Assembly: GCA_046539325.1 (NCBI GenBank)
Contig: JBKHHD010000001.1
Coordinates: 32,001-96,000 of the forward strand
Direction: 5' to 3'
DNA: 64,000 nt
Source: Candidatus Aenigmatarchaeota archaeon
Lineage (GTDB): Archaea > Aenigmatarchaeota > Aenigmatarchaeia > PWEA01
Shown here: positions 15,275-57,290 of the stretch, one piece after another
How the letters are laid out: every line of letters begins with the position of its first letter
How positions within the stretch are numbered: the first letter of the stretch is position 1
Translations under genes and position numbers: made by a program
The notes under the pieces: generated by a model
Seen by the model: only the letters and a program-made list of their open reading frames with translations
Databases searched by the model: none
Told to the model about the DNA's origin: nothing

Positions 15275-15353
15275 TATAAAGTTTTAAATTCTTCCGGGAA
15301 GAGTTGTATGTGAAAAGTTGGTGTAAATATAAAATAAGTTAAGAGGTGAGAAT

Positions 15354-15857
15354 ATTAGAAAGACTTCTTTTGAAAATCAGAGGGTAGGCATATTTGTCGA
15401 TATTCAAAACATGTACTACTCTGCTAAGAACCTTTACGACAGCAAGGTGGACTACTCGTCCCTTATAGAAGTAGCGACCGACGACAGGGAGCTTATAAGA
15501 GCTCTAGCTTACGTTATCAAGGCAGAGACTCCTGACGAGGAAAACTTCTTTGAGGCTTTAGGCGAGATAGGATTCCAGGTGAAGAGGAAAGACCTCAAGG
15601 AGTTCCGCGGTGGAAACAAGAAGGGGGACTGGGACATGGGCATAGCAATCGACGCTATAAAGATGACAGATAGGATAGATGTGGCTGTGCTCGTTACAGG
15701 CGATGGAGACTTCCGTTCCCTGGTAGAACACCTGAAGTCGGAAGGTGTACAGGTCGAGGTAATGTCCTTTGGAAAGTCGACAGCCGGTGAACTTGTTGAG
15801 TCGGCAGACGTATTCCTTAATATGGACAAGAAAAAGGACCTGTATCTCATGGACTGA
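15354..15857 (+). CDS. NYN/LabA-DUF88 domain nuclease (probable ATT start)
   Basis: In-frame RVGIFVDIQNMYY lies upstream of the track ATG 15411; KGDWDMGIAID, VTGDGDF, GVQVEV; GAGGTGA-4nt-ATT at 15354. Confidence 0.88.
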   Translation: MRKTSFENQRVGIFVDIQNMYYSAKNLYDSKVDYSSLIEVATDDRELIRALAYVIKAETPDEENFFEALGEIGFQVKRKDLKEFRGGNKKGDWDMGIAIDAIKMTDRIDVAVLVTGDGDFRSLVEHLKSEGVQVEVMSFGKSTAGELVESADVFLNMDKKKDLYLMD

Positions 15858-15871
15858 AATTCTGAGCAAAG

Positions 15872-54128: not shown

Positions 54129-54848
54129 ATGGATGCTCTTGTACTTGCTGCGGGTAAAGGAACGAGGCTACGTCCTTTAACAGATCAGAAGCCTAAGGTT
54201 CTTGTCGAGGTCAAGGGAAAGTCTCTGATAGAGCACATCATCGATGATCTCAAAGAGATTGGAGCAAAACAGATTACAGTCGTAAAGGGTTATATGGGTG
54301 AAATGCTGGAGGAAAGGCTTGATAAGTACGAAAACATTGATTTCATACAACAGGAAAAGCAGCTCGGGACAGCACATGCCATAGGACTATCATCGTTCAG
54401 CTCTCCTTTCCTAACAGTAAACGGAGACGTCTTCATGCATAGGAGGAATCTCAGGAATCTTGTCTCCGCCTTCGGAGAAGATACGGAAGCTGTCATTGGA
54501 AGTATGAGGGTAGAAAATCCTGAGGAGTTCGGCGTTCTCGAGGTTAAAGGAAGGGAGGTCAAGGATATAATCGAGAAGCCTGACGAACCCCCTTCCGATA
54601 TAATAAACACCGGAACATACGTCTTCTCGCCGGAGATATACAAATACATAAAAAGAACAGAGGTTTCTGAAAGAGGAGAATACGAGATAACCGATTCCCT
54701 TCGGATGATGCTAAAGGATGGAAAACCAGTGAGCCATGCCAAATTCAGTGATTACTGGATAGATGTGGGAAGGCATGAGGATTTGGCGAGAGCAAAAAAC
54801 ATAGAGACAAAGGACAAAACAAAGAGGTCGGTAGTATCTGTGGGATAA
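54129..54848 (+). CDS. Sugar-phosphate nucleotidyltransferase (GlmU N-terminal/RmlA-like, no acetyltransferase domain)
   Basis: LAAGKGTRLRPLT..KPK, QLGTAHA, NGD, IIEKP, SERGEYEITD, WIDVG. Confidence 0.92.
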   Translation: MDALVLAAGKGTRLRPLTDQKPKVLVEVKGKSLIEHIIDDLKEIGAKQITVVKGYMGEMLEERLDKYENIDFIQQEKQLGTAHAIGLSSFSSPFLTVNGDVFMHRRNLRNLVSAFGEDTEAVIGSMRVENPEEFGVLEVKGREVKDIIEKPDEPPSDIINTGTYVFSPEIYKYIKRTEVSERGEYEITDSLRMMLKDGKPVSHAKFSDYWIDVGRHEDLARAKNIETKDKTKRSVVSVG

Positions 54849-56569
54849 CAGGGTACTGCGGACAAGGTAAGACTCCAGAAGTACTGCTCGATTGTTTGGA
54901 AAGGTTGGAGTACAGGGGATACGACTCTGCAGGCCTTGCATTTCTCAATGATTCAGGCATACAGGTAAGCAAGGCAACAGGAACCCTTGATGAACTTGAT
55001 TTTGATTCAGAGGATATAGATGGAGAAATAAATACAGGCATCGGCCATACAAGATGGGCCACACATGGAGATGTTTCAAAAGAAAACGCCCATCCACACA
55101 GCTCTTGCAAAGGAAGGTTTGTATTAGCACACAACGGGATAATAGAGAACTGGAAAGAGCTGAAGGAACAGCTTAACAACCACACCTTTGAATCAGAAAC
55201 CGACTCCGAGGCTGCTGTCCATTACATAGAGGAGAAAGCAGATAAATTTACAACGGAAAGGGCTATTCAGGATTTTATGGAAGAGGTAGAAGGCAGCTAC
55301 GCTATAACCCTCCTTGATTCGAAACAAGAAAAGTTATACGTTATGAAAAGCGGCTCACCCATTGTGATAGGTATCAACGAAGAAGAAGTTTTTGTCGCAT
55401 CCGACGTCTACGCTTTTTCACCGTACACAGACAAAGTAATGTTTCTCAAGGACGAGGAATATGCGGTTGTAGAGGAGGGAAATGTTACAGTAAAGGACAA
55501 GGAAGGCAAGGAAGTTGAAAGGGGCCTCAAAACTGTACAATGGGAACAGGAAAGTTCCGAAAAGGAGGGTTTCGAACACTATATGCACAAGGAGATAAAG
55601 GAAATTCCAAATGCCCTGAAAAAACTACAGAACTCCTTGGATACGACACAAAATGAGAGGCTTAAGAAGTTCGCTGAAAAAATAAAGGATCATGGAAAGG
55701 TTGTCTTCGCCGCCTCAGGGACCAGCTACCATGCTTCTCTACTGGGTGTCTATTTTCTTCAGAAAGCAGGTGTAGAAGCACGGGCATTTTTAGCCTCGGA
55801 GCTCGGGAACTATGACAGGGTTGACGACGATACTCTTCTCATTCCGGTATCACAGTCCGGTGAGACAAAGGACGTGCTTGAAGCAATGAAATACGCAAGA
55901 AACAAAGGAGCGGAAATAGCCTCTATAACAAACGTGCCCCATTCCACGGTCGAGAGGAAGTCAGATATAAACCTTAGGATAAAGTCTGGGCAAGAGGTCT
56001 GTGTTGCCGCTACGAAAACATTTACAAACCAGGTCTACGCGCTAATGAGGATAGCTGAAGAGATGGACGGACTGAGCTTTGAAAGAAACATAGAAAGTTC
56101 TCTTAGAGAGGTCATCGAAAGAAATGAAGAACCAATAAAGGAGCTCGCAGAGGAACTTAAGGAAGAGGAAGACATATACATCATCGGCAAGGGTGAGAGC
56201 TTTCCTGTCGCGAGGGAGATATCGCTGAAACTAAAGGAAATAGCCTACATACACGCCGAAGGAATGTTGGCAGGTGGATTGAAACATGGAACTTTAGCGC
56301 TTATCGAGGAAGGAACTCCCGTTATTTCTCTAATACCAGAAAAGGATTCGGACATGATTTCAAACGTCAAGGAGGCAGAATCACGGGAAGCAAGGACGAT
56401 AAGGATATCACCCCACTACGGCGACTTCTACCTACCTGAGACAGAAAACGGCGATTTCTCCTTTTTCGCGGCAGCAATAGGTTTCTTGCTTACATACTGG
56501 ATAGCCAGGGAGAAAGGACTGCCTATAGACAAGCCGAGGAACCTCGCTAAATCAGTCACAGTCCAGTAG
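54836..56569 (+). CDS. glmS: Glutamine--fructose-6-phosphate aminotransferase (ATC start)
   Basis: ATC TGT GGG ATA = (M)CGITGY; RLEYRGYDSAG, GHTRWATHG, HNGIIEN, SQSGET, KHGTLAL, PRNLAKSVT. Confidence 0.95.
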   Translation: MCGITGYCGQGKTPEVLLDCLERLEYRGYDSAGLAFLNDSGIQVSKATGTLDELDFDSEDIDGEINTGIGHTRWATHGDVSKENAHPHSSCKGRFVLAHNGIIENWKELKEQLNNHTFESETDSEAAVHYIEEKADKFTTERAIQDFMEEVEGSYAITLLDSKQEKLYVMKSGSPIVIGINEEEVFVASDVYAFSPYTDKVMFLKDEEYAVVEEGNVTVKDKEGKEVERGLKTVQWEQESSEKEGFEHYMHKEIKEIPNALKKLQNSLDTTQNERLKKFAEKIKDHGKVVFAASGTSYHASLLGVYFLQKAGVEARAFLASELGNYDRVDDDTLLIPVSQSGETKDVLEAMKYARNKGAEIASITNVPHSTVERKSDINLRIKSGQEVCVAATKTFTNQVYALMRIAEEMDGLSFERNIESSLREVIERNEEPIKELAEELKEEEDIYIIGKGESFPVAREISLKLKEIAYIHAEGMLAGGLKHGTLALIEEGTPVISLIPEKDSDMISNVKEAESREARTIRISPHYGDFYLPETENGDFSFFAAAIGFLLTYWIAREKGLPIDKPRNLAKSVTVQ

Positions 56570-56607: not shown

Positions 56608-56886
56608 ATGTCAGACAAAGAAAAGTTAGGATATCATAAAGGCGCCATGGAAGCTCTGATCAATGAGAAGATAGAGCTCTCACGTCTCCTGAAGATAGTC
56701 AACTCACTGATCCAAAGACACTCCAAGTCTCTCGAGGAGATGGGCGTCGATGTCGAAAAGTTCATAGAAAACGTTCAAAAGAAAAGGGAAAAAAGCGCAA
56801 GAAAGGCGACCGAGAAAAGCAAGAGATCCTCACAGGACAAAGGAGAGTTTGATCTGTCGGACGAAGAACTTCCTGAAGAGTTCTAG
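56608..56886 (+). CDS. Hypothetical protein
   Basis: 92 aa, GYHKGAMEALINEK..., helical, acidic tail; first gene of the run leading to rpoE'. Confidence 0.7.
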   Translation: MSDKEKLGYHKGAMEALINEKIELSRLLKIVNSLIQRHSKSLEEMGVDVEKFIENVQKKREKSARKATEKSKRSSQDKGEFDLSDEELPEEF

Positions 56887-56894
56887 GTGGAAAA

Positions 56895-57290
56895 ATCACA
56901 ACAGTAATACTTGATGCCAACTTCGTCATGGCTCCTGGCGAGGTTGGTGTGGACGTCTTTGAAGAGATAGGCGGGATGTTGAACGGAAATTACAATCTTG
57001 TGATGCCCGAACCGGTGAAAAATGAAGTCCGGAAGCTTTCAAGGGGAAGGGGTGAAGAGGCAAAGGCCGCAAGAATAGCTCTTGAGCTTGTCGAGAGGCA
57101 AGGTGTTGAGATCGTAGAAACAAGTAGAAAAGACGGGGACGCTTCAATAGTCGAAGCTGCAAGGAAATTTGAAAAGCCTGTTATAGCAACCAACGACAAG
57201 AATCTGAGGAACCAGTTCAGACAGAGGTCAATTCCAACAGTTTACGTAAGAACAGGAGACCACGTTGAGATGGAAGGTGATATAAGATGA
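56895..57290 (+). CDS. PIN-domain protein (Fcf1/Utp24-like; probable ATC start)
   Basis: In-frame TTVILDANFVM lies upstream of the track ATG 56928; PEPVKNE, DASIV, IATNDKNLR; AGGTGG-4nt-ATC. Confidence 0.85.
   Translation: MTTVILDANFVMAPGEVGVDVFEEIGGMLNGNYNLVMPEPVKNEVRKLSRGRGEEAKAARIALELVERQGVEIVETSRKDGDASIVEAARKFEKPVIATNDKNLRNQFRQRSIPTVYVRTGDHVEMEGDIR

Follow-up and report, generated by a model that had tools for sequence, protein, structure and literature searches.

ATT, ATC and ATA are listed as initiators in NCBI table 11. In Escherichia coli, initiation at AUC, AUU and AUA was reported to reach 1-2% of that at AUG, with an N-terminal Met on a protein started at AUC, and the accessible part of the same study names the AUU starts of infC and pcnB as the only confirmed E. 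coli cases (10.1101/063800). For archaea, the available portion of a 2020 review of translation initiation gives AUG, GUG and UUG only (PMC7531240), and the initiation factor aIF1 of Sulfolobus is described in the accessible text as discriminating against non-canonical starts (PMC6237735). In Haloferax ribosome profiling, ~30% of the putative alternative sites lay at near-cognate codons and were, according to the accessible passages, set aside (PMC7261190), and a "rare ATT start codon" is proposed in the available part of a 2026 paper for the Asgard tubulin gene AtubA (PMC13394414). Our search of the literature outside subscription journals found no conserved AUC or AUU starts for DPANN archaea or for glmS. 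Here we describe the glmS gene in a 64,000-nucleotide stretch of a Candidatus Aenigmatarchaeota archaeon genome (contig JBKHHD010000001.1, positions 32,001 to 96,000, forward strand; hereafter the window), in which the codon directly before that of the catalytic cysteine is ATC. We consider it likely, with good confidence, that glmS is a working gene with an AUC start codon, used by near-cognate initiation led by a Shine-Dalgarno (SD) motif.

An N-terminal Cys is absolutely required for GlmS function, as stated in the accessible part of PMC11822699, and because the chemistry needs Cys as residue 1, the start of glmS is fixed to one codon. GlmS can therefore serve as a natural reporter of start-codon identity, and in two diverged species the codon at this position is ATC. 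The gene also lies in a geometry that recalls coupled translation, for which the available parts of two archaeal studies describe termination-reinitiation at overlaps of 4 or 1 nucleotides (nt) with ATG starts (PMC6728339, PMC10666635). In what follows, G000 is the genome of the window, a metagenome-assembled genome of 715 kb in 10 contigs with an estimated completeness of 91%, while L-numbers denote loci, P-numbers public proteins and other G-numbers related genomes.

The ATC codon at the putative start of glmS

The glmS locus comprises the following features.

54776..54778, + strand: in-frame TGA closing the glmS frame upstream
54824..54828, + strand: SD motif GAGGT, 7 nt ahead of ATC, complementary to the 16S rRNA 3' end
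54836..54838, + strand: ATC, putative glmS start codon, directly before the Cys1 codon
54839..54841, + strand: TGT, catalytic Cys1 of the N-terminal nucleophile (Ntn) glutaminase domain, position 1 of TIGR01135 and Cys1 of E. coli 1jxa_A
54836..56569, + strand: glmS coding sequence (ATC, 576 codons and stop), matching TIGR01135
54896..54898, + strand: TTG, first canonical start in the glmS frame, where the public call of 557 amino acids (aa) begins

On the + strand the start region reads GAGGT (54824-54828), cggtagt, ATC (54836-54838), TGT (54839-54841), GGG ATA ACA GGG TAC, and the 7-nt spacer between GAGGT and ATC falls within the range of 6-8 at which the SD spacers of the genome peak. The 19 codons between TGA and ATC (GGA TTT GGC GAG AGC AAA AAA CAT AGA GAC, followed by AAA GGA CAA AAC AAA GAG GTC GGT AGT) include no ATG, GTG or TTG, and from the TGA at 54776-54778 to Cys1 the ATC is the sole near-cognate codon. 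Counted from the Cys codon, the frame holds 576 open codons and ends with the stop at 56567-56569. The first-pass annotation, made from the letters alone, had described an ATC-TGT junction with an in-frame TGA at 54776 and no canonical start between them, in an otherwise intact gene; reading of the sequence bore out the former in every detail, and the open codons together with an end-to-end TIGR01135 match confirmed the latter.

The encoded protein scores 589.2 bits against TIGR01135 (cut-off 418.05), with residues 1-575 aligned to positions 1-606 of the 607 in the profile. The Cys codon falls on profile position 1, where the mature N-terminus would lie if initiation takes place at ATC. Against E. 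coli GlmS (1jxa), residues 1-576 align to 1-608 with an E value of 1.3e-96, and Cys1, K485, E488, H504 and K603 (E. coli numbering) are identical to those of 1jxa_A; the last four are catalytic residues of the isomerase domain.

Since no ATG, GTG or TTG follows the TGA at 54776, the list of open reading frames (ORFs) opens the glmS frame only at TTG 54896, and the public protein for the gene, P0002, is likewise a TTG-started product of 557 aa without Cys1 and 19 further residues. That this annotation is correct, and the cell produces a protein devoid of the glutaminase nucleophile, seems to us scarcely credible, even though the TTG is the first canonical start in frame and the gene call exists: inspection of the bases before TTG 54896 revealed no SD-like motif, the 20 codons upstream of it are conserved GlmS sequence reaching profile position 1, and the product would lack the Cys1 that GlmS needs according to the accessible text of PMC11822699.

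A misread base is comparably improbable. Two public runs, assembled separately, each gave a contig of 27,625 bases (X1 at 64x, X2 at 73x), and both contigs showed 0 differences to window positions 54500-55200 over 701 bases. At base 54838, where the first-pass annotation had allowed for a G, C is thus the consensus of both run-wise assemblies at contig level. Both runs are possibly source samples of the genome and do not count as independent samples of the organism; an assembler artefact is unlikely because the two separate assemblies are identical. The notion of a sequencing or assembly error concealing a true ATG can draw on this shared origin and on the metagenomic assembly of the genome, but it has next to nothing left to it in view of the agreement at 64x and 73x and of the identical ATC in a second species, which stems from a separate record. 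Runs X3 and X4 gave only 33-39-base fragments of other organisms and are uninformative on the ATC site. A second glmS copy was sought in the 715-kb, 91%-complete genome and not found, the glmS profile giving a single match in G000.

To compare the codon before Cys1 among relatives, 30 glmS loci were fetched from 61 related genomes, and 27 loci other than that of G000 gave an N-terminal alignment; L009, cut by a contig end, and L012, without an N-terminal match, were dropped from the start-codon count. The codon directly before Cys is ATG in 25 of the 27 related loci and GTG in two, and it is ATG in all 10 further archaeal loci, these being the ones, out of 26, with a match that starts at query residue 1 or 2. 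The alignment of orthologues, named early on as a way to check the start, therefore gives ATG or GTG in 37/37 relatives other than L128, and in L128, the locus of a sister species, the same ATC as in G000.

L128 is the DNA of P0003, the nearest other protein (72% identical), whose public call begins VGRI-CGIT with an Ile codon before Cys; the protein search returned nothing between 100% and 72% identity to the GlmS of G000. The locus, which comes from another metagenome record, reads GAGGTGGGTAGA-ATC-TGT-GGT-ATA-ACA, and its ATC stands behind GAGGTG at the same 7-nt spacing as in G000. Within a maximum-likelihood tree of GlmS, P0003 joins a partial protein of G003 (end branches 0.007 and 0.004), and G000 is sister to this pair with a support of 94/93. 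The simplest reading would be a single ATG-to-ATC change in the common ancestor of the G000 and L128 lineages.

The alignment of the two genes spans 576 codons, is free of gaps and stops and shows 72.9% nucleotide identity. The proportion of synonymous differences (pS) is 0.667, which is near saturation, that of nonsynonymous differences (pN) is 0.162, and the ratio of nonsynonymous to synonymous rates (dN/dS) is ~0.11. The end branches in the tree are 0.20 for G000 and 0.24 for its sister, that of G000 being not longer than those of several ATG-bearing relatives. The ATC is thus conserved between sister species in a gene under purifying selection, and had loss of the start silenced glmS, intact and constrained copies in both lineages after this much divergence would be unexpected.

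Putative ATT and ATC starts in other genes of the genus

For other starts of this kind, ORFs were translated from the upstream stop and Pfam alignments were sought that begin before the first canonical start. The scan of the window yielded two cases besides glmS, a PIN_9 and an NYN gene, and a membrane protein gene and a gene for a 156-aa protein were found elsewhere in the genome via an SD motif followed by ATT.

56885..56889, + strand: SD motif AGGTG of the PIN_9 gene, spacer of 6 to ATC
56895..57290, + strand: PIN_9 nuclease-domain gene, putative start ATC at 56895-56897, 2 kb downstream of glmS
15343..15349, + strand: SD motif GAGGTGA of the NYN gene
15354..15860, + strand: NYN-domain gene, putative start ATT at 15354-15356, behind GAGGTGA
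L095:3100-3624 (G000 C6, start 3624), - strand: three-repeat membrane protein, 174 codons, putative ATT start behind GAGGTGAT
L097:8746-9216 (G000 C6, start 49216), - strand: 156-aa protein, unassigned to a family, putative ATT start

The Pfam PIN_9 alignment opens, at profile position 1, 8 residues before the first canonical ATG (56928), and a start at that ATG would cost the first strand of the domain including a conserved Asp. The codon aligned with the ATC is ATC in eight and ATT in one of the nine family genomes, the next codon being variable, and in eight loci from other families of the order an ATG stands one codon further in. A GTG within the GGTGA of PIN_9 is in frame in 3/9 genomes; in the other 6/9 it is out of frame and no canonical start is present. 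Similarly, the first position of the NYN profile falls 10 residues ahead of the first canonical ATG. The start of the gene reads AGAGGTGA(G/A)AATATT in all eight genus genomes, three of which have a TAA four codons before the ATT. The NYN gene in a genome of another family carries an ATG within three codons. The NYN protein of G003 is 99% identical to that of G000.

The membrane protein, whose repeat unit consists of a hydrophobic helix followed by YYLWK...VSGH, matches no Pfam or NCBIfam family, and its entire first repeat precedes the first canonical start. Its putative start is ATT in three and ATC in one of four genomes, and two of the five genomes searched gave no match. In the 156-aa protein, a single aligned start codon is ATT in G000, G003 and G004 and ATG in G001 and G007. 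None of the PIN_9, NYN, membrane, 156-aa and 92-aa proteins was assigned a family by NCBIfam at an E value of 1e-5. The spacers of all five putative ATT/ATC starts, that of glmS included, are 6 or 7, and in the four further G000 genes the ATT/ATC codon is either kept throughout the genus or exchanged for ATG at the aligned position in some genomes.

Across the whole genome, 59 in-frame codons lie ahead of the first canonical start at an SD spacer of 6-7, and 7 of these are ATT/ATC, with 2.07 expected (binomial p 0.0045). The first canonical starts that have an SD motif (n=134) are ATG in 115, TTG in 11 and GTG in 8 cases, so G000 sets 5 comparatively supported ATT/ATC starts, and up to 7 candidates, beside its 8 GTG and 11 TTG starts. 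The claim that the need for Cys1 places initiation at ATC is hence supported from several sides, namely by the two assemblies, the single glmS, the ATC of the sister species and the conserved ATT/ATC starts of the genus.

Tentatively, and at somewhat short of an even chance, we propose that third-base discrimination at SD-led starts is relaxed in the genus, that AUU and AUC act as regular heritable starts and that toggling between ATG, ATT and ATC sets expression. If so, the PIN and NYN nuclease-domain proteins would be made at a low level, and GlmS would be made in smaller amounts than its operon partner.

Counter-evidence and the remaining explanations

Several observations weigh against a working glmS with an AUC start. 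The comparison of runs being made at contig level, a minority G may be present at 54838, and among the public runs listed there is no RNA run that holds the region. G000 has one gene for an M24-family peptidase, whose identity as a methionine aminopeptidase is only putative. In addition, ATT/ATC starts are rare, not general, in G000. A Pfam match was obtained for 99 of the 256 ORFs whose first canonical start is preceded by at least 10 codons, and only in two of these 99, plus one borderline case, does the alignment extend upstream of the canonical start. None of the 58 Pfam-match ORFs was extended upstream among 150 further ORFs with at least 15 codons ahead of the canonical start, and among 90 ORFs with 10-14 such codons none of 30 was clearly extended and one was borderline. 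The scan took in 90 of the 148 ORFs with 8-14 such codons and 150 of the 151 with at least 15, with 3 ORFs that cross chunk borders set aside. On these counts (0/58, then 0/30 clear and one borderline) we rejected the idea of pervasive non-canonical starts. The borderline ORF is located as follows.

L099:15470-15808, - strand: borderline upstream-extended ORF

The protein itself gives further cause for caution. In the 113 alignment columns with a conservation of at least 97%, GlmS of G000 shows six departures from consensus, a count that ranks second among 59 sequences, and all six departures fall in the isomerase domain. One of them, at window positions 56278-56280 (residue 480 counted from Cys1), is a Gly where the 58 other sequences and E. 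coli (E501) have Glu, and this site sits in the GELKHG motif adjoining the catalytic H504. The six departures could reflect some relaxation of constraint in G000. The sister locus adds a complication of a different kind, as two GTGs of L128 stand in frame with its ATC, three and ten codons ahead of it, and the sister species could in principle start at a GTG and then trim a short propeptide. Were L128 to start at GTG, some of the selection measured would date from before G000 lost its canonical start.

These points feed the explanation that the start codon was recently lost, by which glmS of G000 would be barely or no longer translated and starting to decay, with amino sugars obtained from a host. 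The departures at near-invariant columns, with the E-to-G change at E. coli position 501 among them, would fit such a decay, as would a 715-kb genome that suggests a host-dependent lifestyle and the GTC that G000 has where L128 has the nearer GTG. We nevertheless regard recent loss as unlikely: the sister species has the same ATC, dN/dS is ~0.11 with synonymous sites near saturation over 576 codons in each gene without gap or stop, the G000 branch is no longer than that of the sister, the catalytic residues are intact and the SD motif is kept at the modal spacing. A loss confined to G000 retains some weight because L128 alone has the upstream in-frame GTGs.

The same GTGs, together with the public P0003 call that begins VGRI-CGIT, are the main grounds for supposing that translation begins upstream and that removal of a propeptide exposes Cys1, the upstream start being reached by a frameshift from the nucleotidyltransferase frame or provided by another non-canonical codon. 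PurF of Bacillus subtilis is a propeptide-processed Ntn amidotransferase. In G000, by contrast, no in-frame start of the kind that marks a propeptide-type Ntn amidotransferase was found upstream of Cys, as, apart from the ATC, no canonical or near-cognate codon occurs between Cys and the TGA that closes the frame 20 codons upstream; the L128 GTG, moreover, lies inside the SD motif and is too close to any SD motif of its own. Out of 120 GlmS clusters, only 9 are called from upstream of Cys, and 5 of these 9 have an ATG directly before Cys, while in the other four (P0003, P0038, P0091 and P0117) the codon before Cys reads I, V, L and I, respectively. On the in-frame codons and the gene calls we therefore hold propeptide removal to be very unlikely, more so than a recent loss of the start, and retain AUC initiation of a working glmS as the preferred reading.

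Proposed initiation at ATC and comparison with known systems

The components that would be engaged in such initiation are of ordinary appearance in G000. The 16S rRNA gene, on contig C2, ends in ...GGATCACCTCC, and the initiator tRNA has A1:U72, three G:C pairs in the anticodon stem and the anticodon CAT; an altered initiator tRNA was accordingly rejected with respect to the anticodon, which is CAT in a tRNA with normal initiator features. Loss of aIF1 as the cause of relaxed start selection was rejected as well, since PF01253 occurs in 40 of 41 genomes, G000 and the 8 others from its family among them. The tRNA model RF00005 gave 17 matches above cut-off in the 715 kb, ARAGORN reported 11 tRNAs without introns and more only if long introns were allowed, and no tRNA-Ile was recognised among the G000 tRNA matches, so that the tRNA set of G000 is either incomplete or unusual.

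From these components we infer the following course of events. GAGGT would pair with the 3' end of the 16S rRNA and place the AUC 7 nt downstream in the P site, where the ordinary initiator Met-tRNA (CAU) would pair with it despite the third-base mismatch. GlmS would then begin with Met-Cys, and an aminopeptidase would strip the Met so that the catalytic Cys1 lies free. If E. coli is a guide, AUC probably initiates far more weakly than AUG, and the output of GlmS is for this reason likely to be low compared with that of the upstream gene. Some initiation may be added by ribosomes that finish the overlapping nucleotidyltransferase gene and reinitiate at ATC. That gene is located as follows.

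54129..54848, + strand: upstream sugar-1-phosphate nucleotidyltransferase gene, 239 aa, stop TAA at 54846-54848

Its TAA overlaps glmS by 13 nt, as the first-pass annotation had noted in stating that the start of glmS overlaps the stop of the upstream nucleotidyltransferase, and the two genes are co-directed. The same annotation had named a haloarchaeal host for a reporter assay; the organism itself is a small-genome DPANN-type archaeon and not a haloarchaeon. Against TIGR03992 (Arch_glmU) the nucleotidyltransferase scores 227 bits, below the cut-off of 292, and aligns to positions 1-231 of 393 only, the N-terminal half of the profile. The gene order is the same in L128, where a 234-aa ORF ends with TAG at 1534-1536, one base ahead of the ATC at 1538-1540. 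The stop/start geometry makes coupling of glmS to the upstream gene plausible.

A conserved AUC start backed by selection offers a substrate for testing how far aIF1 and aIF2 tolerate a third-base mismatch. It also bears on annotation, since gene callers restricted to ATG, GTG and TTG yield a 557-aa GlmS without its nucleophile (P0002) and shorten the PIN_9 and NYN proteins, and such shortened calls can mislead metabolic reconstructions of small symbiotic archaea. Should the phenomenon prove general among archaea that rely strongly on SD motifs, public annotation would systematically truncate or miss a class of genes.

Some further gene calls and loci were noted on the way. P0117 stands for a GlmS cluster of another lineage at 50% identity; its call, MVII-CGIV, puts an Ile codon immediately ahead of Cys1 and may reflect an independent ATT/ATC/ATA start. 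P0033, P0037 and P0039, whose "MAY..." calls begin four residues past the catalytic Cys, were first suspected of non-canonical starts; they look like gene-caller truncations, because the related loci compared (among L133-L158) have ATG-TGT in 10/10 cases. At L103:2446-2823 (- strand, G000 C8), the N-terminus of the ORF aligns to a Na+/H+ exchanger profile only from position 171 of 375, and this ORF may be a truncated or split transporter gene. A RuBisCO large-chain N-terminal domain (E 1e-36) is encoded by the gene at L091:12901-13320 (- strand, G000 C5).

SD-led near-cognate initiation is already known, and glmS is an unusually clean, if putative, case of it within the genus-wide ATT/ATC starts. 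Like infC and pcnB, it has an evolutionarily conserved AUH-type codon behind an SD motif, presumably read by the initiator tRNA. Unlike them, it is an archaeal gene, for which start selection is carried out by aIF1, aIF1A and aIF2 and not by IF3; moreover, its codon is AUC, no autoregulatory logic is evident, and ATG, ATT and ATC interchange among the species of the genus. In coupled archaeal pairs, as described in the available parts of PMC6728339 and PMC10666635, the genes are co-directed as they are here, where stop and start overlap by 13 nt in G000 and stand one base apart in L128, but the overlaps there are of 4 or 1 nt with ATG, whereas the start here is AUC and the coupling putative. 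GlmS of E. coli (1jxa) is matched over its full length, with Cys1, K485, E488, H504 and K603 present, and differs in having ATG where ATC precedes Cys1 in G000 and Glu where G000 has Gly at the position of E501. AtubA, finally, is similar in that an ATT behind a likely ribosome-binding site restores the conserved N-terminus, as set out in the accessible part of PMC13394414; in that part the case concerns one gene and is argued from a fold model and an alignment, whereas that of glmS is argued from enzyme chemistry, cross-species conservation and dN/dS.

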